A stretch of DNA of 64,000 bases, from positions 95,229 to 159,228 of the forward strand of contig CAWJEH010000017.1 of NCBI GenBank assembly GCA_963841675.1, written 5' to 3'. The stretch comes from Terriglobia bacterium (GTDB lineage: Bacteria > Acidobacteriota > Terriglobia > Bryobacterales > Bryobacteraceae). Positions 10,318 through 32,023 of this stretch are shown one piece after another. A program made the position numbers and the translations under genes. The notes below the pieces were generated by a model. The model searched no databases, had not been told where the DNA came from, and worked only from the letters and a program-made list of their open reading frames with translations. The stretch's first letter is position 1, and every line of letters starts with the position of its first letter.

Positions 10318-10404
10318 CCACCGAATGATGGGCAAAAACGAACATCAACGAGTGCGGCTCTCACGCCATTCGGATCCTGGCGAGTTTTCGATCGTCGTAT
10401 TGAG

Positions 10405-11645: not shown

Positions 11646-11647
11646 TT

Positions 11648-12181: not shown

Positions 12182-12220
12182 TATACCTAAAGATCGCAGT
12201 CGGTCGGAACTGAGTCGAGC

Positions 12221-13795: not shown

Positions 13796-13891
13796 TTATC
13801 TAACGCGGGTACGACGACGCTGGATCAAAATGACCAGCACTACGACGAACAAGACGCCAGCGATGATCCGGATCAGAGTTGTACTATCCAT
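13796..13891 (-). CDS. unlisted 31-aa single-pass membrane peptide (MDSTTLIRIIAGVLFVVVLVILIQRRRTRVR)
   Basis: It is below the ORF-track size cutoff. The ATG at 13891-13889 is preceded by AAAGGAGAATCAAGTT (AGGAG, 9-nt spacer). It lies 30 nt downstream of the tadC stop. The hydrophobic core plus polybasic tail gives a positive-inside topology. Confidence 0.5.
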   Translation of the reverse strand: MDSTTLIRIIAGVLFVVVLVILIQRRRTRVR

Positions 13892-14836: not shown

Positions 14837-14845
14837 GAAAATCCC

Positions 14846-15814: not shown

Positions 15815-15833
15815 TATCTCTTCTCCACTATGC

Positions 15834-17114: not shown

Positions 17115-17152
17115 TGCCTTACCTACGTGTGAAGATCAAGGTAGATGTCTGC

Positions 17153-18376
17153 CTAGCGGAAGAAGCCGAGCTTTTTCTTTTTCTCGGGATCCGGGGTCTG
17201 GCCGCACGCCTCGGCCGCCATTTGCGCAAAGGCGCGCGCCAGGTTATTTTTTTCCGTCGCGACCGGCATCCCGGTGTTTTGCGCCCGCCGAACCGCCACG
17301 AAGTCATTCGGCACCTTCCATTTTGCCGGCTTCGTCAAGGCTTTGGTGATGGCGCCGTCGTCGATCTCGATGTTTCGCACAAGATACCGGTTCAGGACGA
17401 TCTCCAGCTTTCCATCATCTCTCCCGCCAAAATAGCGTGCAACAAAACGATTGGAGTTACGCAGTTCGGCAACGCTCACCTGGGTCACCAAATAGACTGT
17501 GGAGGCTATTTCGACGAGCGCCTCGTACATGTCGATTGAATGCGATCCAGCGTCCACTACAACGTAGCCGAAGTCTTCCCGAGCAACACGCAACAGTTTC
17601 TCTATTCCATCCTGCGGCGGCTGGGCAGCAGGGATGCTGTCGGGAGCGCCCAGAACCGCGAGACCGGAACTATGCTTTGCCATCAGGACCGAGAGGAAAT
17701 CCGAATCGAGGCGGTTCACGCTCTCGAGCGCATCCACCGCAGTGAATTTAGTCGTAAGACCTAAGCTGAGAGCGGCATCGCCGAGCTGCAGGTCGAGGTC
17801 TATCAAAGCCACTTTACTGCTGGCCTGCTTGGCTAATGCGACGGCGAAATTACTTGCCACGGTGGTCACGCCCGAGCCGCCCTTGGCACCTACAAAGACC
17901 AACAATTTCCCCGTTGCGCGCCTGTGGCGGCGTACTTCGTCGCGGCGCACCGAAGCGCGAACCAACGCCTCGCCTACGGAGCCCGGCAGCACCGGTTCGG
18001 TCAGAAATTCGCGGGCACCGGCGCGCATACATCGAACAAGCAACTCAGAATCAGTGCTGCCCGAGTAGACCATCACGGTTACCGAGCTGTTCCTTCCGCA
18101 GAGATTCTCAACCACATCCAAGGCGTGCTCCGGATTGGGATCGAGATCGATGAGCACGACGTCATAATCCGCTTCAATGATCCCGGCGAGGTCGTCCACC
18201 TGCGGGTAGCGCGTGAGCTCGCGAACAATATTGGCCTGCGGCCCGGCCAGCGCCTTCGCTACGGCGCGGCGTCTCTCCTCATGCGGCCCGATCAGTATGA
18301 GAGAGAGCGCACTCATACTCAGCGACTCAGTATCGCGCATAAAGGTGGACATCACGCCAGTCCTGCTTTCGCCCAT
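17153..18376 (-). CDS. cpaE: CpaE/TadZ: receiver-like N-domain plus MinD/ParA-type ATPase
   Basis: 407 aa. The REC-like region is SLILIGPHEE...VVLIDLDPNPE...VMVYSG. The deviant Walker A is VFVGAKGGSGVTTVASN. The exact start is uncertain. Confidence 0.9.
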   Translation of the reverse strand: MGESRTGVMSTFMRDTESLSMSALSLILIGPHEERRRAVAKALAGPQANIVRELTRYPQVDDLAGIIEADYDVVLIDLDPNPEHALDVVENLCGRNSSVTVMVYSGSTDSELLVRCMRAGAREFLTEPVLPGSVGEALVRASVRRDEVRRHRRATGKLLVFVGAKGGSGVTTVASNFAVALAKQASSKVALIDLDLQLGDAALSLGLTTKFTAVDALESVNRLDSDFLSVLMAKHSSGLAVLGAPDSIPAAQPPQDGIEKLLRVAREDFGYVVVDAGSHSIDMYEALVEIASTVYLVTQVSVAELRNSNRFVARYFGGRDDGKLEIVLNRYLVRNIEIDDGAITKALTKPAKWKVPNDFVAVRRAQNTGMPVATEKNNLARAFAQMAAEACGQTPDPEKKKKLGFFR

Positions 18377-18434
18377 TGTTTGCTTTCCAAAATTAAACGT
18401 TTAACTAATCCGCTCAAGCTTAATATGCCGCTTC

Positions 18435-18953
18435 TCATGACACAGCAAAAAAAGAAAAGATTGTCCCTATCGCAATGGCCGGCGCATACGGCATTTTCCG
18501 GGCAGCGGCGTTCCCCGGCACCAGCGTTTCGTGCGCCCTGAGACCACGCTTCGCCATTCCGAAAATCAGGTCGCTCGTACCGCTCAACGATTCCTTCAGA
18601 AATCCGCCGCAGGTGGCCCAAATTACCGCCATAATACCCCCGGCGATTCCCATAATCACCATCGCCAGCAGGAGTTGGGACGGGCCAATCCACGCCCCGA
18701 TTGCAGCGCAGAGCTTCACGTCCCCCATCCCCATGCCTCCGAGCCAGTAAAAGAAACCCAATGCGAGTGAAGCAATCAACACGCCCAGAACGCTCTGCCC
18801 GAGTCCGCTCCACCCGCGAGTGGCGCTAGAAACGGCAATTCCTGCCGCCAAAAACGGGAACACCAGCCAGTTCGGAATTCGCCGGCTTCGAAGGTCCGAA
18901 ACCGTCGCCGCCGTGAGCACGATGAGAGTAGGCCACCAGGCGATGGAATGCAT
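18435..18953 (-). CDS. cpaA: Flp prepilin peptidase CpaA/TadV (A24 aspartic peptidase, no methyltransferase domain)
   Basis: 172 aa and polytopic. The two catalytic-Asp contexts are VSDLRSRRIPN and GMGMGDVKL. Confidence 0.9.
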   Translation of the reverse strand: MHSIAWWPTLIVLTAATVSDLRSRRIPNWLVFPFLAAGIAVSSATRGWSGLGQSVLGVLIASLALGFFYWLGGMGMGDVKLCAAIGAWIGPSQLLLAMVIMGIAGGIMAVIWATCGGFLKESLSGTSDLIFGMAKRGLRAHETLVPGNAAARKMPYAPAIAIGTIFSFFAVS

Positions 18954-19025
18954 ATGAAACCAGAATAGAACTTGCGCCCGCGTCTCGAATCTACTTAGTC
19001 TGACTATTTACTATCGCAATCCGGT

Positions 19026-19040
19026 AGCCATTCCCGGCCA
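19026..19040 (-). promoter_or_regulatory. sigma54 (-24/-12) promoter for cpaA-cpaE-cpaF-tadB-tadC operon
   Basis: The minus strand reads TGGCTACCGGATTGC (plus strand GCAATCCGGTAGCCA), with exact spacing. It sits in the 127-nt gap between the GT-C gene stop (19081) and the cpaA ATG (18953), 73 nt from the ATG. Confidence 0.6.
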
Positions 19041-19080: not shown

Positions 19081-20730
19081 TCAACGCCTGTACACAGAAG
19101 CAAACGCCCCGTCACGCCTTGTATACACGAGCGCCGGAGAACTCGCCACCACTGGGAGTAGCAGAGCCAGATCCGCGATCGGTCCAGTGATGAATTCGCA
19201 GCCTGCGACTGTTACCGCATGCAAATCTTGGGCCGGAAATTTCGCGCGCAACTCACTCAGCCCGCGCTGGTACTCGGCGCCCTCGGGCGGCAGAGGAAAT
19301 AAAACGAAGTTCGTGAACCCGCTCGTGTCGAGATGTCCAACCAGGCGGGTATCTCGATACTGCATAGTAAATGCCCGTTCTCCCGCGGGTGATTTAAATT
19401 CGGGATATTCCACCGTAACGTATTGGGGGAAATAGTATCCGGCATGTCGAAATCCGAGAAAATGAGAGTCCAATCCGACGATTAAGCTACTTCTTCGGGA
19501 ACCAACTCGCGGTAGTGCTTCTTCGACCCTTCCAAGTTGCGCCTCAAATCGCCGCACGCTCTGATAAGAGCAGTAAAGGGGCGCGTACAGAAAGACAGCT
19601 ATGTTTACGGCCGCAAAGAGGCCTGCTAATGCGGCTTTGAAAGAGTTATGTAGCCGTGTTCGCTCCCACCATTCCGATATCCAGCAAGCGAGCCAGATGC
19701 ACAACGGAGGGAAGATGACCAGAAGATATCCACTATTGATGACCCTAAAAAACACGAAAGTAAAGAACAGCAGGGCAGGCGCGATCCAAACCCATGTGAA
19801 CGTCTTCTGTCGCGATGCTTTCGTGGGCCCAGTACACAAAGGCCGGGCAAACAGCACGCTAGCTGGCCCGAAGCAAAGTACGACAAGGCCGCCGATCAGG
19901 AGTAATCGCGCAATTGAAAGGAGTAGGAATGAGCCGGACGCATTCTGGTGGCCTGGCGACATTCTCCACAGCAGAGAAAGAGAGGAGAAGTAGGCGGCCG
20001 GTCCCCCGCTCGCGTAGACCATCGGCAAGAACCAGGCGAGCAGGGCAATTAGCAACGCCGCAAGGCCGCCCAAAACTCTAGCAAGCGGAATACGGCTGAG
20101 GAACTGGCCCAAAGCGGAACGCCGCGGAAACCGGGGTTCCTCTCGTCGACCCGCGGCATTGCCCGCATCCCTCGCACTCGAAACTGAAAACATGAAGAGC
20201 GGACCAAGGAACTGAAGAGTTGAAGGACGTACGCCTGCGGCAAATCCGAGAATGAGCGCGCCCGGTACGAGCCATTTCTCAGAGCCGACGTAAATTCTCC
20301 AACAAACGTACCCGATCAGAGCAGAGAAGAACGCCTCCACAATGTAAGTCAGGGCGACTGTGCCGTGGAACCAGGCAAGCGGCGACACCAAAAAGAGAAG
20401 GCCAGCAAAACGGGCTGCCCGGGTTCCGAACCATTGGTCTGCGAGCGTATAGGTTACTACGACGGCTCCACAACTGGCAGCTATGCTCACTAAGACAAAC
20501 GCCGCGTTAGGGTCATGGAAGAACTCGTTTAGCAGCTTTCCCAGACACACGTAGAGGAAGTACCCCGGAGGCTGCGGTTGATGAACGGCAGGATCGAAGC
20601 GGCCGATCGCCAGCGCAAAATTCACTGAATCAACGTCATATAACCGATGACTGCGGAAAAAAAAGCGCGTGAGCCCGACCGCGACGACCAACACGCTGCG
20701 ATCCACGTCTTGCCGGGGGCTCACAGACAC
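19081..20730 (-). CDS. GT-C-fold membrane glycosyltransferase (PMT/ArnT/DUF2723-like)
   Basis: 549 aa with more than 10 hydrophobic segments. The first loop is RLYDVDSVNFALAIGRFDPAVHQPQPPGYFLY, an acidic DxD-type loop motif followed by PPGY. A ~150-aa soluble C-terminal domain follows. The N-terminus is uncertain because the putative promoter predicts a TSS near 20726; in-frame GTGs lie at 20724 and 20706. Confidence 0.7.
   Translation of the reverse strand: MSVSPRQDVDRSVLVVAVGLTRFFFRSHRLYDVDSVNFALAIGRFDPAVHQPQPPGYFLYVCLGKLLNEFFHDPNAAFVLVSIAASCGAVVVTYTLADQWFGTRAARFAGLLFLVSPLAWFHGTVALTYIVEAFFSALIGYVCWRIYVGSEKWLVPGALILGFAAGVRPSTLQFLGPLFMFSVSSARDAGNAAGRREEPRFPRRSALGQFLSRIPLARVLGGLAALLIALLAWFLPMVYASGGPAAYFSSLSLLWRMSPGHQNASGSFLLLSIARLLLIGGLVVLCFGPASVLFARPLCTGPTKASRQKTFTWVWIAPALLFFTFVFFRVINSGYLLVIFPPLCIWLACWISEWWERTRLHNSFKAALAGLFAAVNIAVFLYAPLYCSYQSVRRFEAQLGRVEEALPRVGSRRSSLIVGLDSHFLGFRHAGYYFPQYVTVEYPEFKSPAGERAFTMQYRDTRLVGHLDTSGFTNFVLFPLPPEGAEYQRGLSELRAKFPAQDLHAVTVAGCEFITGPIADLALLLPVVASSPALVYTRRDGAFASVYRR
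19089..19127. promoter_or_regulatory. candidate enhancer sites: two TGTA-Y-ACA octamers upstream of the cpaA sigma54 promoter
   Basis: TGTACACA (19089-19096) and TGTATACA (19120-19127) are 31 nt apart. They lie 50-90 nt upstream of the -24 element, inside the last codons of the GT-C gene. Confidence 0.35.
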
Positions 20731-20736
20731 CTGAAC

Positions 20737-20751
20737 GCAATCACGCAGCCA
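20737..20751 (-). promoter_or_regulatory. sigma54-type promoter facing the GT-C glycosyltransferase gene
   Basis: The minus strand reads TGGCTGCGTGATTGC (plus strand GCAATCACGCAGCCA), with exact spacing. It is divergent from the flp promoter. It lies only 7 nt from the annotated GTG start, so either the start is further downstream or the match is fortuitous. Confidence 0.45.
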
Positions 20752-20818
20752 CTCTTTGGGTGCTTAAGTATGCAGGAGCGCCTTAACCGCATACCTACGT
20801 TTCCTGGGATAGCGTGTT

Positions 20819-20836
20819 TGTATACGGCTGTGGACA
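20819..20836. promoter_or_regulatory. candidate enhancer sites between the divergent flp and GT-C sigma54 promoters
   Basis: TGTATACG (20819-20826, 7 of 8) and TGTGGACA (20829-20836) are 10 nt apart. This is the same pair geometry as at 8327/8337. Confidence 0.35.
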
Positions 20837-20843
20837 CTGCGAT

Positions 20844-20885
20844 AACTGCAGCAGACCGATGAAGAACTGCAGTAGACCGATGAAC
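20844..20885. repeat. perfectly abutting 21-bp tandem direct repeat (2 copies, 2 mismatches)
   Basis: AACTGCAGCAGACCGATGAAG (20844-20864) abuts AACTGCAGTAGACCGATGAAC (20865-20885). Each copy contains the CTGCAG palindrome. The repeat ends 37 nt upstream of the flp -24 GG. Confidence 0.85.
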
Positions 20886-20921
20886 CGCTTTCGTTTCAGT
20901 ACGTTCCGTGAGTGTGACGTT

Positions 20922-20936
20922 TGGCTCCCGAATTGC
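20922..20936 (+). promoter_or_regulatory. sigma54 (-24/-12) promoter for flp (and probably the downstream glycosylation genes)
   Basis: TGGCTCCCGAATTGC has the exact TGGC-N7-TTGC spacing. It lies 60 nt upstream of the flp ATG (20996), which has its own AGGAGA Shine-Dalgarno. Confidence 0.65.
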
Positions 20937-20995
20937 CGTAAGGAGAGTACGTAGCTTGTAATGCAAGTACGAACTTAAACCAGGAGACAAATTGG

Positions 20996-21202
20996 ATGCG
21001 AAATGCTTTTCTGAAACTCTACGTGAAGGCCGAGGTGATGCTGGCCGCGATTAAAAACGAAGAAGACGGACAGGATCTCATCGAGTACGCACTCGTAGTA
21101 GCCCTTATTGCCCTTGCCGCCACGGCCGGAATGAGTACTCTGGCCACCAGCATCAACAGTGCCTTTACATCCGTCGCTACCAAGCTCAACAGCTACGTCT
21201 AA
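20996..21202 (+). CDS. flp: Flp/Fap-family type IVc prepilin
   Basis: 68 aa: MRNAFLKLYVKAEVMLAAIKNEEDG|QDLIEYALVVALIALAATAGMSTLATSINSAFTSVATKLNSYV. The G-XXXX-EY processing motif is followed by a hydrophobic helix. The predicted mature pilin is 43 aa with a Ser/Thr-rich C-terminal half. Confidence 0.9.
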   Translation: MRNAFLKLYVKAEVMLAAIKNEEDGQDLIEYALVVALIALAATAGMSTLATSINSAFTSVATKLNSYV

Positions 21203-21324
21203 GGCTGCGGTCGAACGGGAGAGCGCGTCAATTAACGAGCCGTTTCTCCCTCGAGGCTATGCCGAATTGGACACAATAAATTAGAAATCAACAGTTCTAA
21301 CAACTCGCTCACTGGAGCGGACAG

Positions 21325-22392
21325 ATGCTGCTTTCCATTGTAATTCCCGTATTCAACGAGGCGGCGACCTTGGGCCTGATGATCGCCCGTCTGCGTGCTG
21401 TTCTTTCAGAGCTGAATTGGGAAGTCATTTTCGTGGACGACGGCAGCACGGACAGATCGCTCGAAGTAATTCGTCGAGCGGCACTAGATGATCCGCGAGT
21501 GAAGGCAATCGGCTTCAGCAGGAACTTCGGCCATCAGGCCGCGGTAACCGCAGGCCTGGACTTCGCGGAAGGTGATGCGGTCGTGGTCATGGACGCCGAC
21601 CTGCAGGACCCTCCTGAACTTCTACCTCAAATGGTGCAGCTGTTTGAGGATGGCTACGACGTGGTTTCACCGAGACGCGTGGCTCGCGATGGTGAAACGA
21701 TATTTAAGAGATCCACGGCCGCCCTGTTCTATCGGGGGATGGCGCGCATGGTGGATCGGCGGCTCACGGCAGACGTCGGGGATTTTCGTCTGTTCAGCAG
21801 GCGGGCGGTTTTAGGCATTCGCTCCTTCCGCGAACATCACAGGTTTATGCGCGGGCTGGTAGCTTGGCTTGGACTGAAGGAAGCGATTCTTCCTTTTGGA
21901 AGGCAAGCCCGGGCAGGCGGCGAAACTAAGTATTCGTTGTTCAAGATGGTACGATTTGCCTGGACGGCGGTTTCTTCGTTCTCGGCCCTTCCACTGCGCC
22001 TTAGCATGGCCGCGGGAACTATTCTTAGCTGCGCAGGTTTTGCCTATCTTCTGCGAGTGCTCTATCTGGCGTTCTGGACTCACAGGCTGGTCCAGGGCTG
22101 GGCGTCCATTGTCGTACTGCAGTGCATCTTTTCCGGGATGATTCTGCTTGCACTCGGAGTGATCGGCGAGTACGTAGCCAGAAGTTACGAAGAGAGTAAA
22201 GGCCGTCCGCTGTACGTGTTAACAAGCACTGTTAACACAGAACTGCCGCAATACGAGATACCTTGTGCCTCCATCCTGATTCGGCCCGAGATTTCTGAAA
22301 GCAATGTGATCACGCTCCCTCGCGCGAGCCGCTTCCCTGAAGCCGCAATCACAGGTTTCGAGCACAAAGCGACAGCCCGTATCCGGACATAG
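21325..22392 (+). CDS. GT2 polyprenyl-phosphate glycosyltransferase (GtrB/ArnC/DPM1-like)
   Basis: 355 aa. The blocks are [54 protein letters not shown] and DFRLFSRR. Two C-terminal TM helices contain [18 protein letters not shown]. This is the signature architecture of lipid-phosphate sugar-charging GT2 enzymes. Confidence 0.9.
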
Positions 22393-22414
22393 ACATCCGT
22401 CGCGGGCCCAATGT

Positions 22415-24193
22415 TTGAGAATGGCTACAGCCCCTTCTAACCCGCCGTCTATCCTACTGATCGAAGCCGCCCTGACTCTAATCACCATTGCGCTCGCGTT
22501 CTGCTGGCCGCAAAGCCGTTCCGGCGTTTTCCTCAAGCTGGAGCAGATGTTCGGAAGACTGGCACAGCGGCGAGCTTTATCCGCAGTGTTAGTAGGGACG
22601 GGAGCTTGCATACTGCGCCTGGTAATTCTTCCCTTCTCCCCCATTCCGCAGCCATTCCTTACCGACGATTTCAGCTATCTTCTCGCCGCAGATACATTTG
22701 CATCCGGACGGCTGACCAATCCGACTCACCCGATGTGGGTACATTTCGAAAGCTTTCACATCACGCAGATCCCGAGCTACATGTCGATGTATTTTCCCGC
22801 TCAAGGCATGCTGCTGGCGGCCGGGAAAATACTCGCGGGCCATCCCTGGTACGGCGTATGGGCGAGCGCAGGACTGATGTGCGCTGCCTTCTGCTGGATG
22901 TTGCAGGGCTGGCTGCCGCCGCGCTGGGCGCTGCTCGGGGGTTTACTAGCCGTTCTCCGGATCGCGCTGTTCAGCTATTGGGTCGATCAGTATTGGGGCG
23001 GTGCGTTGCCGGCGCTCGCGGGCGCCCTGGTGCTCGGGGCGGTTCCTCGAATTCGGCGCGGCTTCCGTACTCGAGACTTTCTCTGGATGGCCCTCGGCAT
23101 TGCCATTCTCGCGAACAGCCGTCCGTACGAAGGCCTGCTTGTAGCAACCCCAGCAATTGTTGCCGTGTGCTGGTGGATCGCCAGGAGGCCGCATCCCGCG
23201 GCATCCATTCTGGCGCGGCGCATAACTCCCGCCGCTGTACTGCTTCTGTTCACCCTGGGATTCATGGCTTATTACAACTACAGGGTGTTTGGAAACGCGT
23301 TCACACCTCCTTATCAAGCCAATCGAGCGGAATACGCCTCGGCGCCTCATTTCGTGTGGCAGTCGGCGAGACCCGAACCCGCGTACCGACACGAGGTCAT
23401 GCGCGAGTTCTATTCCGGTTGGGAATTGCGCTGGTTCGACGAGATGCGAACGCCCGGAGGTTTTATTAGAAAAACTCTCAAGAAACTGGGCATCGCTGTC
23501 CTTTTCTATTTCGGCGTGGTGCTGCTGATTCCCTTGGTGATGCTGCCGAAGGCGTTGGTTGACCGCCGCATCCGTTTTCTGGTAATTACCGGCGGCATTT
23601 TCGGAATCGGACTAGCGGTGGAGACCTGGCTGCTTCCCCACTACGTCGCACCCTTTGCGGCAGGTGTCTACGCGATTCTGCTACAGTGCATGCGTCACTT
23701 GCGGGCGCGGCGCCCACATGGGCAACCGGCAGGGTTGTTCCTGGTACGTGCGATCCCGGCGCTGTGCGTTCTGCTGGCCGTGCTCCGGTTATATGCGCAA
23801 CCACTGCACATCCAGCTCCCCAACGCGCTATCGTTTACGGCTTATGGAATGCCGCCGCTCGGGGCGCGGCGAGCGCACCTTTTGGAGGAACTGAAGAAAA
23901 TCCCCGGGAGACAGCTCGCCATCGTTCGGTATACGCCTGATCACGACATTGCTGACGAATGGGTATACAACGCTGCCGCGATCGATAAGGCAAAGGTGGT
24001 TTGGGCGCGGGCGATGGACCCAGCCAGCGATCAGAAATTGCTTCAATACTACAGAGACCGTAAGGCGTGGCTCGTGGAACCGGATTTCAATCCACCCAGG
24101 ATTTCGCCGTACCCCGATCGCGGGTTCGCGGGATTTGAAGGCGAGATGGTGTCTCGGGTTATCTCCGCGCCCGCAAGAACGTCGAGACCCTAG
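22415..24193 (+). CDS. large polytopic membrane protein, probable GT-C-type glycosyltransferase
   Basis: 592 aa with about 12 hydrophobic segments. The first extracytoplasmic loop, [31 protein letters not shown], carries an acidic DD motif. A soluble C-terminal region is present. It lies 22 nt after the GT2 gene. Confidence 0.6.
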
Positions 24194-24215
24194 ATGCGTC
24201 TCAGAAGATTGACTG

Positions 24216-25031
24216 ATGAATAGCGCGTCGCAAGAAGTACACGCGAAAGAATCGCTTTTTCATGATGCATGGGCGTCTGAGACGAATCTCGCTTCGGTGG
24301 ATGTCCGTTCCGTTTTCGAAGCGCCAACGGCCATGGAGAACCAATTCATTCTCGGATTGCTGGGACCGCTCGCGGGCAAACGGATACTGGACGTTGGTGC
24401 GGGTCTCGGCGAATCGTCGGCCTATTTCGCCCTGAAGGGAGCGGAAGTCACGTGCACTGATCTATCTCCGGCGATGGTTGCCTGCGCAGCCAGATTAGCG
24501 CGGCTCCATGGAGTGAACATCAAACCCGTTGTCAGTGCGGCAGAAGACCTGAACGTGCCGCCCGATCACTTCGACATTGCTTACATCGCCAATACCATTC
24601 ACCACGTAACCGATCAGAACGCTTTATTCGAACAGGTGCGTCGTGCGCTCAAGCCAGGCGGCATTTTCGTGTCCATCGATCCCTTACGCTACAACCCCCT
24701 TATTGAAGCGTATAGGCGGATGGCGACCAAGGTCCGGACCGACGATGAATCCCCGCTGGGATTTGAGATCCTCGACCTCGCCCGCCAATACTTTGTCAGC
24801 GTGCGACACCGCGAATTTTGGATCGCATCGCTCGCTCTGTTCTTGAGATATTTCGCGGTTGACAGGATTCATCCAAATCAGGATAGGTATTGGAAGCGCA
24901 TTTTTCGAGAATCTAAAAGCTCCCTAAGATGGTGGCTTCCATTGCGTGCCATGGACGAATGCCTGACACGATTGCCTTTAGTCCGCCGCCTGGCATGGAA
25001 TATTGTCATCTGGGGAAATAGGCCCGCGTGA
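24216..25031 (+). CDS. class I SAM-dependent methyltransferase
   Basis: 271 aa with motif I (ILDVGAGLGESSAYFA), an acidic post-I residue (VTCTDLS) and motif III (LKPGGIF). It lies 22 nt after the preceding gene. Confidence 0.85.
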   Translation: MNSASQEVHAKESLFHDAWASETNLASVDVRSVFEAPTAMENQFILGLLGPLAGKRILDVGAGLGESSAYFALKGAEVTCTDLSPAMVACAARLARLHGVNIKPVVSAAEDLNVPPDHFDIAYIANTIHHVTDQNALFEQVRRALKPGGIFVSIDPLRYNPLIEAYRRMATKVRTDDESPLGFEILDLARQYFVSVRHREFWIASLALFLRYFAVDRIHPNQDRYWKRIFRESKSSLRWWLPLRAMDECLTRLPLVRRLAWNIVIWGNRPA

Positions 25032-25086
25032 CATCCATCTTTGCGGCTCTGGATTCAGCTGCTGCGATCCTGTCCAAAAGCGTGCA

Positions 25087-26916
25087 ATGACCAAAGGGAT
25101 TGCAGCTGATTTCGACGACACACTCAAGCATCGTGCCGTTGAGCCAGACTTAACGGCGGCCATGGACCATATCCAAACGCGGCAGCAAGCAGCCTCGAAC
25201 GTACTCACAAACATCGGCCGTAAACTTTCCTCGTTTCCTGTACTTCTTTTAGCTATTCTCCTGGCCAGAGTTTATTGGACCTGCCGGGAGAACATCGCGG
25301 ACCCGGACATTTGGTGGCACATGCTCAATGCCCGATATCTTTTTGAGCATCTGCAGTTACCAAACGTGGACACATATTCTTTTACAGCACGAGGGGCGTC
25401 CTGGATCGATCACGACTGGTTATCGGAACTTTTTTACTACGGAGCCTTCAGCGCAGTGGGACTGAAAGGCGTCTTCATCCTTCTCACTGCGAGTTCAGCG
25501 GGTTTGGTCGCGATCATCTTTTCGCTTTCGATGAAAGAGTCCGGAGACCCTTTTACGGCTGCGATCGCCACAGCCTTCGGCAGTCTTCTGGCGATGGTTG
25601 GCTTTACTCCGCGTACTCAGAATTTCGGGTGGCTGTGTTTTGCCGGGATCTATGCGATTCTATTGCGCTTCCGGCGCACCAAGGATGGACCGTTGTGGCT
25701 CATTCCGATACTTTTCTGTGTTTGGATTAATTGCCATGCGAGCTGGCTCATGGGATTGGTCATCTACGCGATATTTTTAGCAGCTGGGTTGATTCGCCGG
25801 GACCTCGGACGGCTGGAGGCTGTACCTTGGTCCAGCAGCGAACTGAAAAAGCTGGTCGTGACTGGCTTCGCATCTCTTATTGCCCTGCTGATCAATCCGT
25901 TCGGGTATCGGCTCTTGCTCTATCCATTTGACATGGCAACCCGGCAAGGAATCAACGTGGGCAACGTAGAGGAGTGGTCTTCGGTGAACTTCAACGACTT
26001 CCGTGGAAAAATCGTGGCGGTGGTGCTAGCTGCTATTTTTGTCACCGCCTTGACCGGGCGTAAACGATGGAGGATCGACGATGCGCTGCTGACAGCTTTC
26101 GTGTTGTATTGCGGCCTGGCGCACATCCGGTTTCTGCTGCCGGCGGGAATTGTGCTGCCGGCTATCGTGGCTCCGCAGTTCGGCCGGATCAGCTCTTACG
26201 ACCCCCGACATGAGCGCCGGCTCCTGAATGCGGCGCTGCTCTCGCTTGTAGCGGGGGTGTGCGTGCTCGGCTTCCCGTCCGCGAAGATGCTCGATTCCCA
26301 GATCGCCGGATTCTTTCCGTCCGGCGCAGCTAAATTTTTACAGTTGCACCCACAGCGCGGGCGCATGTTCAACCTGTATCAATGGGGAGGGTATCTGGAA
26401 TGGACTCAGCCCAACACTCCCACCTTTATAGACAGCCGCACCGACATTTTCGAATACAAAGGAGTCCTAAAGGACTATCTGGCCGTGGTCACCGCGACCG
26501 ACTCGCTGGAGATACTCGACCGGTATCGCACAGAATACGTTGTTTACCCTTCCGGTACCGCGCTGACTTATCTCCTCGCGAAAAGCGGCCGTTGGGAAAA
26601 CATCTACAGCGACACCCAAGCCACTATTTTTCGTAAGCTGCCGAATCAGGAGGGATTTCGCACGCCGCCGAAACCTGCTCCTCAGCCGGTTACGCTTCTC
26701 TCGCGGTCATCCATCAGCGGCCACAGCGATAGGCTCGCGCATAGCTATTCGCCAAAAGAGGCTGTTTTTTCCAGATCCAGCTTTTGCCATCGGCCCAGAC
26801 CCGATCAGTGTCCTTCGCGATCAGAGCGTTTATCGAGAGATTCGTACAAATTTTATCTATATCCACCATCTCAGCTATTCGGGGTGTTTCAAACAGATCA
26901 TCTATGGGACGGATGA
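25087..26916 (+). CDS. polytopic membrane protein, GT-C-like candidate; paralog of 28933..30477
   Basis: It shares N-terminal loop motifs with its paralog: ADPDIWWHMLNARYLFEHLQLPNVDTYSFTARGASWIDHDWLSE versus SDPDLWWHLKLGELIWNTHRIPRVDLFSYTAAGHSWIPQEWLSQ. It also shares the C-terminal blocks FNLYQWGGYLEW / FNEYVYGGYLIW. I placed the start at ATG 25087; the track ORF begins at 25003, inside the methyltransferase gene. The last ~92 codons have no counterpart in the paralog. Confidence 0.65.
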   Translation: MTKGIAADFDDTLKHRAVEPDLTAAMDHIQTRQQAASNVLTNIGRKLSSFPVLLLAILLARVYWTCRENIADPDIWWHMLNARYLFEHLQLPNVDTYSFTARGASWIDHDWLSELFYYGAFSAVGLKGVFILLTASSAGLVAIIFSLSMKESGDPFTAAIATAFGSLLAMVGFTPRTQNFGWLCFAGIYAILLRFRRTKDGPLWLIPILFCVWINCHASWLMGLVIYAIFLAAGLIRRDLGRLEAVPWSSSELKKLVVTGFASLIALLINPFGYRLLLYPFDMATRQGINVGNVEEWSSVNFNDFRGKIVAVVLAAIFVTALTGRKRWRIDDALLTAFVLYCGLAHIRFLLPAGIVLPAIVAPQFGRISSYDPRHERRLLNAALLSLVAGVCVLGFPSAKMLDSQIAGFFPSGAAKFLQLHPQRGRMFNLYQWGGYLEWTQPNTPTFIDSRTDIFEYKGVLKDYLAVVTATDSLEILDRYRTEYVVYPSGTALTYLLAKSGRWENIYSDTQATIFRKLPNQEGFRTPPKPAPQPVTLLSRSSISGHSDRLAHSYSPKEAVFSRSSFCHRPRPDQCPSRSERLSRDSYKFYLYPPSQLFGVFQTDHLWDG

Positions 26917-28843
26917 TCCGCGCACAGGAAGCGGGATCTCCGCCGAACACGGTGCCGCAGCCTAAAGTTTCAGCGGCGAGTTGGCGGTCCGCATACAACC
27001 CAAAGGGTAGGTCTCCCGGATCGGTATTGGGGTTGTGCTGTATGATGGCGCTCCGAGGGAGCTTCTCTTTCAGAGCTTCATAGAACTGCCGAAGAGCGTA
27101 AGTACGACGGCCAAGATTACGGTCGGGAGATATCCACTTCGCATCGGGGGCATCAGTGGCATCGGCCAGAATCGCGAACGACCTGAGGACCAAAAGTTCA
27201 TAGAGTGTCCCAGCAAAGCCGAGCACAAGCATGGCAATTATGAGGGTTCTTCTATCTCGTGGGCGTACGATGTCGGATCCGTCGGTTGCGGTGGGTCGCT
27301 TAGACAGCCACCCTTCGCTCAGGAACTCTGCACCCCAAAGCAAAAGGACGAACTGCGCAACCATGATTCCCCTCATTCCGAGATCGTTGATGGTGATCAC
27401 TCCCGAGCGAATGAATGTGCAGAAGAGGATGGCGGTGGCGGCCATAATAACCGCGCATAGTTCTCGAGACCTGAAGAAGGTGTTGCCGGCGCGCATTCTT
27501 CGCCATTGCTCCAGCGCAACGAGAAAGAAAAAACCGAATTCGAGCAAGTAATTCAGCGGCAATAGAAGAGTGTTAAGAGCGGGAATTAGCCAGGGATAGC
27601 TCGATTGTAACGGCAACAGCGGGATCTCGGTAAACAAGAACGACCGTATCGCTAATTGCAACAGATGCCCACCGCCAGCAGCTTGCGCAGCATGCCCTCC
27701 GGTGGACTCAAGGAAATAAGGGAGAGATACAAGGAGCGAAACGAACCCTGCAGCAGATAACATTGCGGCTTGGCGTAATTGTTTCGTGACCGCCACTACG
27801 AAGATCCAAACTGATACAAAGGCTGCAAAGACGACCGTGACGTAGACCGATAAACCCAGGGCGCTCGCGAACGCCGTTCCCGCTGCAACAGTTGTTGCTA
27901 GGTTGAGCCCTAAGCCTGGAAGTCCGCGGCGGTACCAAATAAGGAGGAAGCCTGTCAGGCACGCAATCAGAGCTGCCACGTGATGCGGCGCCCACAGCAC
28001 GGCTCCGATCCAAGCCGCGACCGGAGTGTTCCACATCTCGATAGTCGGAATGATGCGCCGCGTGACGATATCCAGAAGAGCGACTGGCAAAATGTCGAGG
28101 CCAGTTACCAGCAACAAGGCCAAACCGATTATCATTCTTCTTTCGAGGTTGACCGCTCCTTTGGGCTGGAAGAACCGGAGGTAAAGCGGAATCAAGGCGA
28201 TCAAGCCCATTCCCGACCAGACCGTGCCCGCTAACATGGCTTGGCGAGGACTTACCAGGGCGGCCCCAATCTGGCTCACCAGACTACACAGAATGAACCA
28301 GAAATAGTGATATCGAAGAACAACGGGATGCCCGGGGAAGAAGTAGGGATTATGCGGCGGAATGCCAGAGCGCGTCAACGAAGCAGTTATGGCCGTACGC
28401 AGAGTGTAGTCATGCGCCAAGAACGAGAAATAGAGTCGGTTACCGAACTGCAGATCTATCACACTCAAAGTACCTAACGCGATCCAGCCCGCTGTAACCG
28501 CCAGGAACCCGATCCGTCCCTTGGAGGGTAGCGTGCGGGACAGCCACCGCCGGCGCTCAAAGAAGAGCAGGCCGAGGAAACCGATCCATACGATTCCGAA
28601 TCCCGCCCACACCGCCATGAGAGACCAGCGCCACAGGAGATAAGCCGATATTGGCGAAATCCCGATAGAAAGAGGAATCGATATAGCGAAGCGTGCGAGA
28701 AGCATGCGCTTGCGAAATCCGAGCGCGTCCAGAAACCAACCACAGACGTATCCCGGCAGAAGAACGAACAGTGGGAATAACAGGAAAGCCACTGCTGTAC
28801 CGACCAGGTCCGCGACCATGAAATTCGCAATTACCGGGTGCAT
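26714..28843 (-). CDS. 709-aa polytopic membrane protein, possible GT-C/polymerase-like enzyme
   Basis: It has more than 14 hydrophobic segments plus a ~200-aa C-terminal soluble domain. I recognised no named motif. It is the last gene of the EBP-paralog-709aa unit. Confidence 0.6.
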   Translation of the reverse strand: MHPVIANFMVADLVGTAVAFLLFPLFVLLPGYVCGWFLDALGFRKRMLLARFAISIPLSIGISPISAYLLWRWSLMAVWAGFGIVWIGFLGLLFFERRRWLSRTLPSKGRIGFLAVTAGWIALGTLSVIDLQFGNRLYFSFLAHDYTLRTAITASLTRSGIPPHNPYFFPGHPVVLRYHYFWFILCSLVSQIGAALVSPRQAMLAGTVWSGMGLIALIPLYLRFFQPKGAVNLERRMIIGLALLLVTGLDILPVALLDIVTRRIIPTIEMWNTPVAAWIGAVLWAPHHVAALIACLTGFLLIWYRRGLPGLGLNLATTVAAGTAFASALGLSVYVTVVFAAFVSVWIFVVAVTKQLRQAAMLSAAGFVSLLVSLPYFLESTGGHAAQAAGGGHLLQLAIRSFLFTEIPLLPLQSSYPWLIPALNTLLLPLNYLLEFGFFFLVALEQWRRMRAGNTFFRSRELCAVIMAATAILFCTFIRSGVITINDLGMRGIMVAQFVLLLWGAEFLSEGWLSKRPTATDGSDIVRPRDRRTLIIAMLVLGFAGTLYELLVLRSFAILADATDAPDAKWISPDRNLGRRTYALRQFYEALKEKLPRSAIIQHNPNTDPGDLPFGLYADRQLAAETLGCGTVFGGDPASCARIIRPIDDLFETPRIAEMVDIDKICTNLSINALIAKDTDRVWADGKSWIWKKQPLLANSYARAYRCGR

Positions 28844-28932
28844 GTACGAAGTTATTGGCTTACGATTCCAAGCGGACAGACAGAGTATGCGATTTCGTTG
28901 CGGCGGATACTACGCCGCGATTATGTGAGCCG

Positions 28933-30477
28933 CTAGCTCTTCCGAACACGGGCGCCAGACCTAGCGAAAACAACGGACGAATCGTCGAAGTAGATCTTTG
29001 TCCATCCGGGCAAGAGGGGCAAAGCATTGACGAGAGGCGCGCCCCTGGACAGCACGCAAAAATCCACACGATACTTCTCAAGAAGAGGCCTCGGATCAGC
29101 TTGAACTGTGATCAGCTTTCCGTAGTCCGCGAGAACACCGGTCCACTCGAATACATCGCCACGGCCGTCGACGAAAACTTTATGCTGCGGGGCCGCCCAG
29201 ATCAAATAACCGCCGTAGACGTACTCGTTGAACATTCTGCCCGCGAGTCCCGAACGATTGATAAAGTCGACCGCTTTTACGGGATTGCCTCGTTCCACTT
29301 GCCAACTGAGCAGATGCCGGCTCGGAAAACCCAAAACGAGAGCCCCCACGGAAACTGCCAATAATGCCGCGTTCGGAAGCGGCCGGTCGCGATCCGGCTC
29401 ATACTGATCCCAAGCGGTTGCCAGCAACCGGCACAGGATGGGCGCTGAAAGTATGCCGAAGAGGAATAACATTCGCTCGTGCTGGACAGCAAGCCCGAAT
29501 CCGATAGCTGTGAAAAGCAGTTCCTGAAAGGTTAGCTCGATACGGCGAAGTAGAGGGATCAGCAGAATCAGGAGGGCTACCGTTAACACCGCCAGTGACC
29601 GCATATTGTTGAACTGGGGAGGCTGCCATTCGGAGATCTGAGTCGTGTTGAGACGTAGTTTCAACATTACGTCGAGCGGATACCAGATCAACTTCGGCCC
29701 AATCGGATTCGCGAACAGAGCGATCAAAGACAGGGCGAACGAAGCCGTAAGGATCATTCGGGTCCGCCGCTCCAAGCGCTGAGAAACAAGGAGTCCAAGG
29801 CGGAACTCGCAAAACGAGCAGAAGAGCACCACCACGAATACAATCAGCCCGAAAATGAACGAACTGTGTAGATTAATCCAGAAGGCGAACAAGGGCGGAA
29901 GCACTAAGAAGTAGCGGGAGTCGCGCGAACTGCCCAGATGAAGAATGAACAGTTGACACGAAAGCAGGAGAAAGCCGATTAACTGCGGCCGAATGGCCAG
30001 ACCGACGGTCGAGAAGAGCCAGAACGCCAGCCCTCCGACGAATGCGACTTTAGGGTTTCCAGAATAGACAGCGCATAGAGCATACGTCGCAATGGCAAGC
30101 GCGGAAACGAGTACGCAGAACCAGAGCATCAAGCCCGTGTACCCACCGCCGAAATATGCCGCATAGATCGTTACTTGCGAAAGCCATTCTTGCGGAATCC
30201 ATGAATGCCCAGCGGCGGTGTACGAGAACAGATCGACCCGCGGAATACGATGAGTGTTCCAGATGAGCTCACCGAGCTTGAGATGCCACCACAGATCGGG
30301 ATCACTAAAGCGCGAGCGAACCGTGAGGCACATCAAGGCTACAAGCAGCCCGGCGATTGCCGCGGGAAAAGAGAAAACAATGCGCAAGAAAGTGCGCTGC
30401 CGAATTTCAGGAAACTCGCCTGTTATCGGCGCAGCCGGTACTTCAAGCTGCATCGATGGCGTCGACACCCTCCTCAA
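28933..30477 (-). CDS. polytopic membrane protein, GT-C-like candidate; paralog of 25087..26916
   Basis: 514 aa; see the paralog motifs listed for 25087..26916. The start is uncertain: TTG 30477 or ATG 30453. Either one overlaps the 3' end of the sigma54 activator gene. Confidence 0.65.
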   Translation of the reverse strand: MRRVSTPSMQLEVPAAPITGEFPEIRQRTFLRIVFSFPAAIAGLLVALMCLTVRSRFSDPDLWWHLKLGELIWNTHRIPRVDLFSYTAAGHSWIPQEWLSQVTIYAAYFGGGYTGLMLWFCVLVSALAIATYALCAVYSGNPKVAFVGGLAFWLFSTVGLAIRPQLIGFLLLSCQLFILHLGSSRDSRYFLVLPPLFAFWINLHSSFIFGLIVFVVVLFCSFCEFRLGLLVSQRLERRTRMILTASFALSLIALFANPIGPKLIWYPLDVMLKLRLNTTQISEWQPPQFNNMRSLAVLTVALLILLIPLLRRIELTFQELLFTAIGFGLAVQHERMLFLFGILSAPILCRLLATAWDQYEPDRDRPLPNAALLAVSVGALVLGFPSRHLLSWQVERGNPVKAVDFINRSGLAGRMFNEYVYGGYLIWAAPQHKVFVDGRGDVFEWTGVLADYGKLITVQADPRPLLEKYRVDFCVLSRGAPLVNALPLLPGWTKIYFDDSSVVFARSGARVRKS

Positions 30478-31852
30478 CGCGGATCAAACGATGGAGGTAA
30501 GCGCGTGAAATATTGAGACTGCGCGCTGCCAGCGTCTTATTGCCTTTGCAATCTTCGATCGCCTTCATCGCGATCTTGAGCTTGAAGTCACGGAGGAGTC
30601 TTTCGAAGGATCCGATTTGCGGCAGATCCATATCATCTGAAACCGTCGTTTGCTGAAAGCGCTCCGGCAAATCGATCGCCTGAATCGCTTCCGTGTCGGC
30701 GCGAATGATGGCACTCTGAATTACGTTTTCCATCTCCCGAACGTTGCCGGGCCATTCATAGTCCTGAAGCGCTGCCAGTGCACCCGCAGTGACATGGGTT
30801 ACCCGTTTGTTGTAGAGCTCCGAGTAGCGTTTTACGAAAGATTTGGCCAGGGCCGGGATATCCTCAGGATGATCGGCCAAAGCTGGGGCCTTGATCGTCA
30901 TCACATTGATACGGTAGAACAGGTCGAGGCGAAATGTGCCCTCTGTAATCATGCGCTCGAGATCCCTGTGGGTGGAGAAAAGCACGCGAGCCTTCAGTGG
31001 AATCGCCCGACCGCTGCCTAGACGGGTAAACTCTCTCTGCTGAAGCACGCGCAATAACTTCACTTGTGTCTGGAGACTCAACTCTCCGATTTCATCTAGC
31101 AAAAGCGTGCCGCTTCCAGCCTGTTCGAAGTAGCCGGTTCGAATGCCGGTTGTGCCGGTGAAGGCACCCTTTTCGTGACCGAAGAGCTCGGATTCGATGA
31201 GGGTTTCCGGGATCGCGCCACATGAAACAGCCACGAAAGGAGCTTTTGCCCGATCGCCTAGATTGTGAATGGCGCGAGCTATGAGCTCTTTGCCAGTCCC
31301 GCTCTCCCCGGTTATGAGGACCGAAGCGTTGAGGTTGGCGACGCGGCGAACGAGATCATATACAGCACACATTTCGGAGCTGGACCCGATCAGGCCATCG
31401 CACCCAAGCGGTTCGGCTTCTGATTGTGCAAAATCAGATGTCCGCTTTCCTTCGAGCTCCCTCTTCATCGCGGTGTGCTCGTAAGCTTTGCGAATCGTGG
31501 CCTTCAGTTCACGCAAGGCGGGAGGCTTCCGACAATAGCTGTGAGCGCCACGCTGCACCAGCTCGAGGGCTGTCGCGCGGGAAGGGTCGTCGGTCATTAC
31601 AATAACAGCCACATCCGACTCGGCAACTTGGTTGTAAAGTTCAATCTGCTCCTCGTTATTCCCGGATTCGGCATCGAGGTCCAGGAGCAGAACATCGAGC
31701 GAGCCATCCTCTGTCATCCTGTGAACGTCGTCCCGACTGAGTTCGGTGAAGACTTGAGAGTCTTTCCCCAAGCCGGGTGCAAGCAGAGGGGGTAACTTCA
31801 GATCCTGCGAATACAGACCAACACGGATCGCATGCGGGATTGTAGACATCAT
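30443..31852 (-). CDS. sigma54-dependent transcriptional activator (NtrC-family bEBP) with atypical receiver domain
   Basis: The AAA+ sigma54-interaction domain shows GESGTGKELIARAIH, ESELFGHEKGAFTGT (GAFTGA loop variant), LLLDEIGEL and RVLQQREFTRLG. The C-terminal Fis-type HTH reads GNKTLAARSLNISRAYLHRLI. The N-terminal REC-like fold keeps LLLDLD, VIVMTDD and RKP but lacks the usual acidic pair after beta1. I placed the start at ATG 31852/31849 (AAGGAAGG upstream); the track ORF extends to TTG 31912. Confidence 0.9.
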   Translation of the reverse strand: MMSTIPHAIRVGLYSQDLKLPPLLAPGLGKDSQVFTELSRDDVHRMTEDGSLDVLLLDLDAESGNNEEQIELYNQVAESDVAVIVMTDDPSRATALELVQRGAHSYCRKPPALRELKATIRKAYEHTAMKRELEGKRTSDFAQSEAEPLGCDGLIGSSSEMCAVYDLVRRVANLNASVLITGESGTGKELIARAIHNLGDRAKAPFVAVSCGAIPETLIESELFGHEKGAFTGTTGIRTGYFEQAGSGTLLLDEIGELSLQTQVKLLRVLQQREFTRLGSGRAIPLKARVLFSTHRDLERMITEGTFRLDLFYRINVMTIKAPALADHPEDIPALAKSFVKRYSELYNKRVTHVTAGALAALQDYEWPGNVREMENVIQSAIIRADTEAIQAIDLPERFQQTTVSDDMDLPQIGSFERLLRDFKLKIAMKAIEDCKGNKTLAARSLNISRAYLHRLIRVEEGVDAIDAA

Positions 31853-32023
31853 CCTTCCTTGTGTTCGACTGTCCGGAGACTTGAGAATACTGGCTATTAG
31901 GACTCTAATCAAGCCCTCAGTGAGTACTACCCTTTAGTCCCCGTAATAGTACCGATTCATCACTTAAGGGTAATACCGCTGTCGGGCGGCAAGCCCCTTT
32001 AACGCTTTGCAGTTTGCAGTCCA

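Follow-up and report, generated by a model that had tools for sequence, protein, structure and literature searches.

Does a locus for Tad/Flp pili carry glycosyltransferases of its own, and, if so, is the pilus the structure that they modify? Few bacterial adhesion organelles are as widespread as Tad/Flp pili, whose tiny pilins are generally regarded as unmodified. The question is raised by a 64,000-nt stretch of DNA (the window) from a Terriglobia bacterium of the Acidobacteriota (GenBank assembly GCA_963841675.1, contig CAWJEH010000017.1, positions 95,229 to 159,228 of the forward strand), in which the flp pilin gene lies among genes for a lipid-linked sugar synthase, a methyltransferase, and several polytopic membrane proteins. 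The reading favored here, with a probability of roughly 0.6, is that this Terriglobia Tad/Flp locus carries its own periplasmic, lipid-carrier-dependent O-glycosylation system, with Flp or the pilus as the acceptor. A dedicated system for Flp or another Tad surface structure had been proposed in a preliminary description of the sequence, and the proposal was supported by the GT-C folds of the membrane proteins, by genetic linkage, and by promoter motifs, with the acceptor inferred from gene context.

The window contains a complete Tad/Flp pilus locus, which spans 5.7-32 kb according to Pfam annotation of its open reading frames (ORFs), and the glycosylation genes sit inside it. All of the ORFs named in the preliminary description were recovered at the positions and on the strands that it had given them. 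It had also portrayed flp as embedded in a glycosylation module; the gene neighborhood was found as described, but the embedding runs the other way, with the glycosylation genes embedded in a full Tad locus. The nearest relatives are Terriglobia (Acidobacteriota) metagenome-assembled genomes. The flp gene (20996..21202, + strand) encodes a prepilin with a 25-residue leader and a 43-residue mature pilin, and matched the Pfam family Flp_Fap with 33.8 bits (E = 3e-8), compared to a curated cut-off of 32.2 bits. The processing site lies between EDG and QDLIEYALVVALIAL, within a G/QDLIEY prepilin motif (G/XXXXEY type) that is followed by a hydrophobic helix. The profile match, the processing motif, and the adjacent tadV and tadZABC genes all place the protein among the Flp/Fap (Tad, type IVc) pilins. 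Downstream of flp, on the same strand, gaps of 122, 22, and 22 nt lead to the genes for a GT2 glycosyltransferase (21325), a polytopic protein of 592 residues (p592, 22415), and a methyltransferase (24216), exactly as claimed, and a further 55 nt precede the start of a second polytopic protein (p637) at 25087.

The first of these genes (21325..22392, + strand) encodes a GtrB-type polyprenyl-phosphate glycosyltransferase of family GT2, in agreement with its earlier assignment as GtrB/ArnC-like. The protein is similar over its full length (residues 3-302) to the solved GtrB of Synechocystis (PDB 5EKP, E = 1e-72), and also matched ArnC (E = 6e-43) and Pfam Glycos_transf_2 (E = 1.3e-37). It carries the VDDGS and DADLQ motifs (DxD type) of a GT-A domain, as well as two C-terminal transmembrane (TM) helices, with hydropathy peaks at residues 232-250 and 262-280. 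The best NCBIfam match was streptococcal PgfS (E = 3.7e-80); the score of 269 bits falls under the model cut-off of 500 bits, and the enzyme is therefore judged, from its sequence, not to be a PgfS orthologue.

The gene at 24216..25031 (+ strand) was confirmed by Pfam to encode a class I S-adenosylmethionine (SAM)-dependent methyltransferase (Methyltransf_11, E = 1e-21). The protein has no signal peptide or TM segment and thus has no access to the portion of the pilin that lies in the periplasm. Its PDB relatives are generic (phosphoethanolamine N-methyltransferases and O-methyltransferases), and aligned over the SAM-binding core. The gene recurs beside GtrB, p592, or p637 in related loci (L001/L005, L016, L032, L084, L086, and L088). 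Phosphocholine on Flp1 (PMC6182317) was considered as a link to the methyltransferase, and was dropped as unsupported.

The preliminary description had called for five polytopic proteins to be tested for the GT-C fold. Four of the five are GT-C enzymes, one by family profiles, two by structural models, and one by paralogy, while the fifth matched no family. The first is encoded by the gene at 19081..20730 (- strand), referred to here as 19081, which is the first gene of the tad operon and lies directly upstream of tadV. The window protein itself narrowly missed the cut-offs of two Pfam families, TMEM260-like (DUF2723) and PMT_2 (21.6 vs 24.2 bits and 21.7 vs 26.1 bits, respectively). At the family level, the PMT/ArnT/DUF2723-like assignment was borne out, with 21 of 21 aligned members matching TMEM260-like (best E = 3.9e-10) and 18 of 21 matching PMT_2. 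The window protein has at least 8 hydrophobic segments, and a Y-D-x-D-S motif is invariant after the first TM segment of the family, D32 and D34 being present in 21/21 members. TMEM260 and PMT1 carry an aspartate (D52 and D77, respectively) in their first extracytoplasmic loop, and the YDxDS motif of 19081 occupies the place of this catalytic residue in both (PMC10214176).

Structural modeling was required for the proteins that lack a Pfam model. The p592 protein (22415..24193, + strand), which is linked to flp, belongs to a family of more than 7900 homologues, none of them named, and matched no Pfam model. The 22 best Foldseek matches of its AlphaFold2 model (predicted local distance difference test score, pLDDT, 69.3; predicted template modeling score, pTM, 0.72) to PDB entries were all GT-C enzymes, including Pmt4 (E = 5e-5), AglB, ArnT, ALG12 (TM-score 0.53), STT3, AftA, and PglB. 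A D-[DE]-F-S motif lies in the loop that follows one of the early TM helices, with D84 in 22/26 family members, D/E85 in 26/26, and F86 invariant. The p514 protein (28933..30477, - strand) belongs to a family of more than 1,100 homologues, all labeled 'hypothetical', and no Pfam or NCBIfam match and no PDB profile match was obtained for p514 and 26 family members. Its model is of higher confidence (pLDDT 84.8, pTM 0.84), and the 20 best Foldseek matches in the PDB were again all GT-C enzymes (STT3, DPY19, PglB, AglB, AftD, and ArnT; E = 1.6e-6 to 3e-3), with STT3 (8age, E = 1.6e-6, TM-score 0.60) at the top and transporters appearing only at E > 0.1. The alternative fold that had been named for these proteins, that of a transporter, was thus absent from the best matches of both p514 (20/20 GT-C) and p592 (22/22 GT-C). 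The motif D59-P-D61-x-W-W-H is invariant in the p514 family (D59 and D61 in 26/26). The p637 protein (25087..26916, + strand) carries the same DPDIWWH motif, and its proposed paralogy with p514 was confirmed (32% identity over 480 residues, E = 1e-74); its start is most likely at 25087, and orthologues are present in L084 and L086. On the strength of these models, p592 and p514/p637 are predicted to be two sequence families new within the GT-C fold.

The fifth polytopic protein, p709 (26714..28843, - strand), is a 13-TM protein with a Cys-containing C-terminal domain, 1193 homologues, and invariant residues D12, D130, D145, and D250. No match to its family was found in Pfam, in the PDB, or in hhalign comparisons. 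Hhalign comparisons among the four polytopic families likewise revealed no similarity, and apart from p514 and p637 the proteins are not detectable paralogues; no NCBIfam model matched any of the polytopic proteins, and sequence and profile searches of the PDB with the 19081, p514, p592, and p709 families returned nothing usable. The p637 and p709 genes are convergent, and their 3′ ends overlap by 203 nt (26714-26916). The last ~90 residues of p637 are of low complexity, non-conserved, and beyond the part in common with p514, and may reflect a lost stop codon or a frameshift.

The failure of p514, p592, and p709 to match any curated enzyme family could be taken to mean that the GT-C-like proteins are non-catalytic structural or chaperone parts of the Tad apparatus, or that their adjacency to pilus genes is meaningless inherited synteny. 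Such an explanation is very improbable. In the 19081, p592, and p514 families alike, little or no variation is seen in the acidic motifs that occupy the catalytic position of GT-C enzymes, and a GtrB donor synthase is present. A scan of one genome per species yielded 155 relatives of 19081, of which 80 loci were kept; the ORFs of the relatives were labeled by comparison with the window proteins. All 80 loci are from Terriglobia (Acidobacteriaceae, Bryobacteraceae, Terracidiphilus, Edaphobacter, and Granulicella), and this restriction to a single class counts in favor of the rival reading. In 77 of the 80 species loci, the 19081 orthologue has at least two tad genes within 10 kb, which answers the earlier call for a check of gene adjacency in relatives, and of the three loci lacking tad genes at least one (L020, 3.5 kb) is merely too short a contig. 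In 60 loci the orthologue and the tad genes share a strand, with the orthologue directly upstream, and in 14 they are divergent. The gene for the sigma54 activator described below was found in 70 of the loci, p514 in 48, p592 in 24, either p514 or p592 in 64, flp in 28, GtrB in 4, the methyltransferase in 3, and p709 in 2.

Several gene orders were observed (arrowheads give gene direction; GTC, 19081 orthologue; EBP, enhancer-binding protein; MT, methyltransferase). The first is p514< EBP< GTC> tadV...tadC>; the second is tadC<...tadV< flp< GTC> p592> EBP<; the third is that of the window itself; and the fourth, seen in L086, is tadC<...rcpC< flp< flp< GTC<, followed by GtrB> p592> X> MT> .... 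Among cultured strains, Acidobacteriaceae bacterium KBS 96 (L016) has the series activator, p514, MT, GtrB, flp, GT-C, tadV..., and KBS 89 and Edaphobacter aggregans DSM 19364 have a layout that lacks flp. Since the linkage of 19081 to tad genes survives these rearrangements, function is favored over inherited synteny. The persistence of linkage over at least three gene orders, and over replacement by non-homologous GT-C families (see below), also argues against a non-catalytic role.

These loci bear on a second alternative, in which the system is dedicated to the Tad apparatus and its acceptors are TadE/F/G-like pseudopilins, or the product of orf8446, rather than the major pilin. The 19081 gene tracks the tadV-tadC operon and not flp: in 52 of the 80 loci no flp was detected within 10 kb by a hidden Markov model and a motif search, and only TadE/F-like pseudopilins were present. 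It is thus the machinery operon, and not flp, with which the 19081 family is associated. Candidate acceptors of the required kind exist. The product of orf8446 (8446..10158, + strand) is anchored in the membrane, combines a disordered region rich in Ser, Gly, and Thr with a C-terminal domain that is conserved, and matched no Pfam family; 42 related loci encode homologues, with 20-32 Ser/Thr per 100 residues, at that same end of the tad genes. The TadG-like protein is Ser/Thr-rich as well, and streptococcal GtrB and PgtC2, which glycosylate Ser/Thr-rich disordered regions, provide a precedent (PMC12041528). What makes this alternative rather unlikely is the behavior of the genes next to flp. 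The p592 gene is absent from these loci whenever flp is absent, with both genes in 24 loci, flp alone in 4, p592 alone in 0, and neither in 52. In two loci found via p592 (L087 and L088), 19081 is lacking, but tadV< followed by flp> flp> (GtrB>) p592> is kept. Moreover, p592 and GT-C proteins of the GT87, PMT_2, and PMT types are encoded directly behind flp and in the same direction, in many cases on contigs where no further tad gene is close by.

The latter observation was made in a flp-centered sample, for which metagenome contigs were scanned with an Flp alignment, and 27 loci with at least 2.5 kb past the last flp were retained. The flp genes of this clade often occur in tandem arrays of 2-5 copies, frequently on contigs without nearby tad genes (L093, L097, L104, L120, L153, and many others in L089-L168). 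The next same-strand gene encodes p592 in 5 arrays, GtrB in 5, a large polytopic protein of some other kind in 8, and a product of a different sort in 8, while 1 array has no such gene. GtrB and/or a large polytopic protein thus follows flp in 18 of the 27 arrays, and in 17 of the 18 the products are of GT-C type and represent at least 4 unrelated families: p592 (5 arrays), GtrB and then a PMT_2-type protein or p592 (5), GT87 (5), PMT_2 (1), and PMT with TPR (1). The GT87 proteins scored 26.6 to 51 bits, against a Pfam cut-off of 25, and the proteins behind GtrB in L123, L136, and L141 matched PMT_2 with 31 to 35 bits (cut-off 26.1). The polytopic protein of L103 matched PMT_2 just under the cut-off (24 bits), and that of L114 matched PMT, PMT_2, and TPR. 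The one array of the 18 that was not counted as GT-C-type (L162) has a polytopic pair after flp, the second member of which was labeled p709-like. On the same contigs, starts of large polytopic ORFs are about tenfold denser near flp, with 0.43 per 1.5 kb within 1.5 kb past flp, vs 0.04 beyond 6 kb. The linkage of flp to GT-C genes that had been proposed from the window alone is therefore found in relatives as well, both in the co-occurrence with p592 and in the 17 of 27 arrays. Of all the evidence here, the swapping of GT-C families at the same slot after flp speaks most strongly for the pilin or the pilus as the substrate, and it is this non-orthologous displacement that makes Flp the most likely acceptor. 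The preliminary description had further proposed a flp-GtrB-methyltransferase unit; it exists in the window, but GtrB and the methyltransferase are variable extras among the relatives, and adjacency of flp and GtrB is seen in a minority of loci.

The same arrays bear on a third alternative, namely that the substrate of the GT-C enzymes is a glycoconjugate other than a protein (exopolysaccharide, adhesin polysaccharide, lipopolysaccharide or lipid A, or a glycolipid) that is co-regulated with Tad pili for attachment, in which case the linkage would reflect a common sigma54 regulon and not a common substrate. GT-C enzymes that act on glycans or lipids (ArnT, Emb/Aft, and the PimE-type GT87 proteins) are among the structural and family matches, and the presence of several GT-C paralogues per locus recalls periplasmic polymer assembly. 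In addition, the 8.65-Mb contig of one relative carries NTP_transferase, epimerase, and DegT genes beside the activator-p514 pair, ~12 to 34 kb from tad. However, Pfam scans found no polysaccharide export, polymerase, or initiating phosphoglycosyltransferase genes in the window module, and co-regulation explains poorly why different GT-C families fill the slot after flp on contigs that carry flp only. A non-protein acceptor is accordingly considered unlikely.

On the 8.65-Mb contig (loci L002 and L084, ~12-34 kb apart), the tad/GT-C locus was observed to run into a larger glyco-region, with three tandem p709 paralogues, two p592 copies, and a methyltransferase-p637 pair. Sugar-nucleotide genes (NTP_transferase, epimerase/dehydratase, and DegT aminotransferase) are also located there.

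The regulatory claims of the preliminary description, namely a twin sigma54 promoter between 19081 and flp and co-regulation of the two transcription units, stood up to comparison. The scan motif TGGC-N7-TTGC has 7 matches in the window, vs 2.9 expected. Motifs of the sigma54 -24/-12 type precede tadV (19016..19030, - strand, TGGCTACCGGATTGC), 19081 (20737..20751, - strand, TGGCTGCGTGATTGC), and flp (20922..20936, + strand, TGGCTCCCGAATTGC, 60 nt from the ATG). The motif is positionally conserved before 19081 orthologues in 49 of 83 loci, compared to ~6 expected, and precedes flp in 14 of 47 relatives, compared to 2.3 expected. In L086, back-to-back motifs face the 19081 GT-C gene and GtrB, suggesting that the GtrB operon can own a sigma54 promoter where it is not behind flp. 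The gene at 30443..31912 (- strand) encodes a sigma54 enhancer-binding protein (Pfam Sigma54_activat, E = 1.4e-66, and HTH_8) with a weak receiver domain (E = 3e-4), and such an activator adjoins in 70 of the 80 related loci. The activator and p514 genes overlap by 35 nt (30443-30477), and the pair is kept in 48 of the 80 species. No histidine kinase turned up among the ORFs scanned with Pfam. Taken together, the predicted promoters and the enhancer-binding protein point to a sigma54-dependent regulon. The -12 element of the motif ends ~6 nt before the listed GTG start of 19081, and ~10-25 nt before the conserved coding region in relatives (L004-L083, near position 9965-9980). Because the motif is so near the coding region, the true start of 19081 is probably a few codons downstream of 20730, with a 5′ leader that is very short or absent; the public protein P0001 has 547 residues, compared to 549 for the 19081 ORF.

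The absence of a convincing terminator after flp had been cited in favor of co-transcription of flp with the downstream genes. A consensus scan indeed finds no terminator, but folding revealed a hairpin (21217..21250, + strand, -14.4 kcal/mol) that begins 14 nt 3′ of the flp stop codon and lacks a U tract, and comparison showed that it is kept in relatives, so the claim was not accepted. Equivalent GGGAGA...TCTCCC-type hairpins follow flp in L002, L005, L007, L016, L032, L053, L059, L075, L077, and L080. These hairpins are GC-rich and lie 10-20 nt past the stop codon; their structure is kept while their sequence varies, and a T run follows some of them, though not that of the window. The element is probably a 3′-end stabilizer of the pilin mRNA or an attenuator, and co-transcription of flp with the genes from GtrB to p637 is possible only as read-through of the conserved hairpin.

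In the mechanism proposed here, the GtrB-type GT2 enzyme would load a single sugar from a nucleotide sugar onto undecaprenyl phosphate at the cytoplasmic face of the membrane, and the soluble SAM methyltransferase would probably methylate that sugar or its precursor. The lipid-linked sugar would then be flipped across the membrane, and the GT-C enzymes (the flp-linked p592, the tad-operon-linked 19081, and p514/p637) would transfer it in the periplasm. Ser/Thr residues among the ~20 C-terminal residues of Flp, while it is still anchored in the membrane, are the likely acceptors, with the TadE/F/G pseudopilins as possible further ones, and glycosylation would precede TadA-driven assembly. The remaining GT-C paralogues might lengthen the glycan, or act on further sites or pilins. 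The flp gene, the GT-C/tad operon, and, in relatives, the GtrB operon would be expressed from sigma54 promoters, presumably driven by the adjacent enhancer-binding protein, which would be co-transcribed with p514. The wider proposal, that Flp carries O-linked and possibly methylated sugars across Terriglobia and owes them to interchangeable GT-C enzymes encoded after flp or at the front of the tad operon, stands at even odds.

A number of observations weigh against a pilus-dedicated glycosylation system. The acceptor is proposed from gene context, and GT-C enzymes act also on lipid A, polysaccharides, and teichoic acids. The 52 of 80 loci that lack flp near the 19081 orthologue count here as well, as do the 9 of 27 flp arrays without a GT-C-like neighbor, and GtrB and the methyltransferase were found within 10 kb of the orthologue in only 4/80 and 3/80 loci, respectively. 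The sampled loci are phylogenetically related, and the counts overstate their independence. Confidence in the p592 model is moderate (pLDDT 69), and p709 is without a class. No GtrA-type flippase was seen in the module, where the gaps from flp to p637 (22-122 nt) are too small for a small ORF; no GtrA-specific search was made of the remaining window.

The composition of the pilin was also put forward in the preliminary description as an argument for glycosylation. Mature Flp does have 43 residues, with 9 Ser/Thr among the last 24, as had been counted. The C-terminus of the Caulobacter Tad pilin is Ser/Thr-rich too, and an AFTxxxxKL-type C-terminus seems to be a general feature of Flp. In cryo-electron microscopy, no glycan density is visible on the Tad pilus of Caulobacter (PMC10710030); Ser/Thr richness is therefore weak evidence, and was discarded as an argument. 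It also follows that glycosylation is not general to Tad pili, and is lineage-specific at best.

The remaining genes of the locus supply the pilus machinery. The core Tad operon (13922..18953, - strand) consists of tadC, tadB, tadA, tadZ, and the prepilin peptidase gene tadV (Pfam T2SSF twice; T2SSE, E = 4.7e-59; AAA_31/CbiA/Response_reg; Peptidase_A24, E = 8.8e-21). At the far end of the locus lie rcpA/cpaC (5706..7316, - strand), which encodes the secretin (Pfam Secretin, E = 1.2e-46, with T2SS-T3SS_pil_N and BON), and rcpC/cpaB (7353..8204, - strand; Pfam RcpC, E = 9e-27), which is preceded by a sigma54-like motif at 8266-8252. The neighboring orf8446 product has 570 residues and a single TM helix with an S-x3-H motif, and its Ser/Gly/Thr-rich disordered stretch comprises ~110 residues; the motif is TonB-like. 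A tadG-like gene (10294-11505, + strand) is followed by two tadE/F-like pseudopilin genes (11648-12181 and 12221-12712, + strand), with Pfam Tad/TadE matches across 10294..12712 (Tad, E = 9.4e-12; TadE, E = 6.3e-9 and 1.3e-9). Downstream of tadC are a PilZ-domain gene (12849-13265, - strand; E = 6.8e-9) and a DUF192 gene (13262-13705, - strand; E = 2.7e-11), both of which recur in loci L001-L003 and L086-L088. A 31-residue single-pass membrane peptide, MDSTTLIRIIAGVLFVVVLVILIQRRRTRVR, is encoded directly after tadC (13796..13891, - strand). Near-identical called genes occupy the same position in L001, L086, L087, and L088, and the peptide may be a small Tad component that has escaped recognition.

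The logic of a lipid-sugar synthase, a GT-C enzyme, and a pilin is known already. TfpW, a GT-C enzyme encoded next to the pilin gene, glycosylates the type IVa pilin of Pseudomonas aeruginosa (bioRxiv 10.1101/2020.04.19.049825). By analogy with TfpW (group IV arabinosylation), the GT-C gene here stands beside a pilin gene, and the proposed logic would be the same, with a polyprenyl-phosphate monosaccharide made in the cytoplasm and Ser/Thr residues of the pilin modified in the periplasm. Genetic coupling of a GT-C gene to the pilin gene across relatives, the hallmark of a TfpW-like arrangement, was found in both samples (24/4/0/52 for flp and p592 among the 80 loci; 17/27 flp arrays). The system nevertheless differs from that of TfpW in several respects: the pilin is the 43-residue Flp of a Tad (type IVc) pilus and not a globular type IVa pilin, the donor synthase is of the GtrB rather than the DprE1/2 type, and each locus has four or five GT-C-like genes and predicted sigma54 regulation.

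In streptococci, membrane-anchored proteins are O-glycosylated on Ser/Thr-rich stretches outside the cytoplasm by GtrB together with PgtC2, as well as by the Pgf system (PMC12041528, PMC5856776). Both GtrB+PgtC2 and PgfS/PgfM1/PgfE/PgfM2 resemble the present system in combining a GtrB-type undecaprenyl-phosphate-sugar synthase with polytopic membrane glycosyltransferases. However, the streptococcal systems are general and not linked to pili, the GT-C enzymes here are of other families, and the host is a diderm, in which the reaction would be periplasmic. A similar division of labor is found in GtrA/GtrB/Gtr(type), ArnC/ArnT, and CsbB/YfhO, in which undecaprenyl phosphate is charged by a GT2 enzyme and, once flipped, gives up its sugar outside the cytoplasm through a GT-C enzyme. 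Among solved structures, those of GtrB and ArnC are closest to the window GT2, and ArnT is among the structural matches of p514 and p592. The acceptors of those systems are O-antigen, lipid A, and teichoic acids, whereas here the genes belong to a pilus locus, with no GtrA-like gene in the module. Eukaryotic TMEM260 and PMT/POMT, as well as actinobacterial Pmt, resemble 19081 in their Pfam families (TMEM260-like (DUF2723)/PMT_2) and in the Asp motif of the first extracytoplasmic loop. The similarity of 19081 to these proteins is limited to the N-terminal GT-C module, with E = 1e-10 at best, and its C-terminal domain is unrelated and lacks TPR repeats.

Literature searches on Tad/Flp-dedicated glycosyltransferases, on bacterial DUF2723, and on Acidobacteria Tad with sigma54 turned up no account of such a system. 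The novel elements are the proposed use of this logic on Flp pili, the retention of the arrangement throughout Terriglobia, the wiring through sigma54, and the two GT-C families that lack a Pfam model. Flp1 of Aggregatibacter actinomycetemcomitans is stated to be glycosylated in a passage of PMC6182317 that cites Inoue 2000, and no enzyme for this long-standing report is named in the literature examined.

If the proposed function is correct, type IVc pili would have their first dedicated glycosylation system, one controlled by sigma54, and pilin-specific GT-C glycosylation would reach beyond type IVa pili to those of type IVc. The system would also provide genetic candidates for the unexplained modifications that have been reported on Flp pilins, and functions for two large uncharacterized families of membrane proteins (>1,100 and >7,900 homologues). 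The arrangement of flp followed by a GT-C gene would serve as a genetic handle for finding protein O-glycosylation systems in uncultured bacteria. The Terriglobia are a dominant soil lineage, and such a system would suggest that Acidobacteria tune the surface chemistry of their pili, and thereby adhesion, hydration, and resistance to proteases and phages, in soil and peat.

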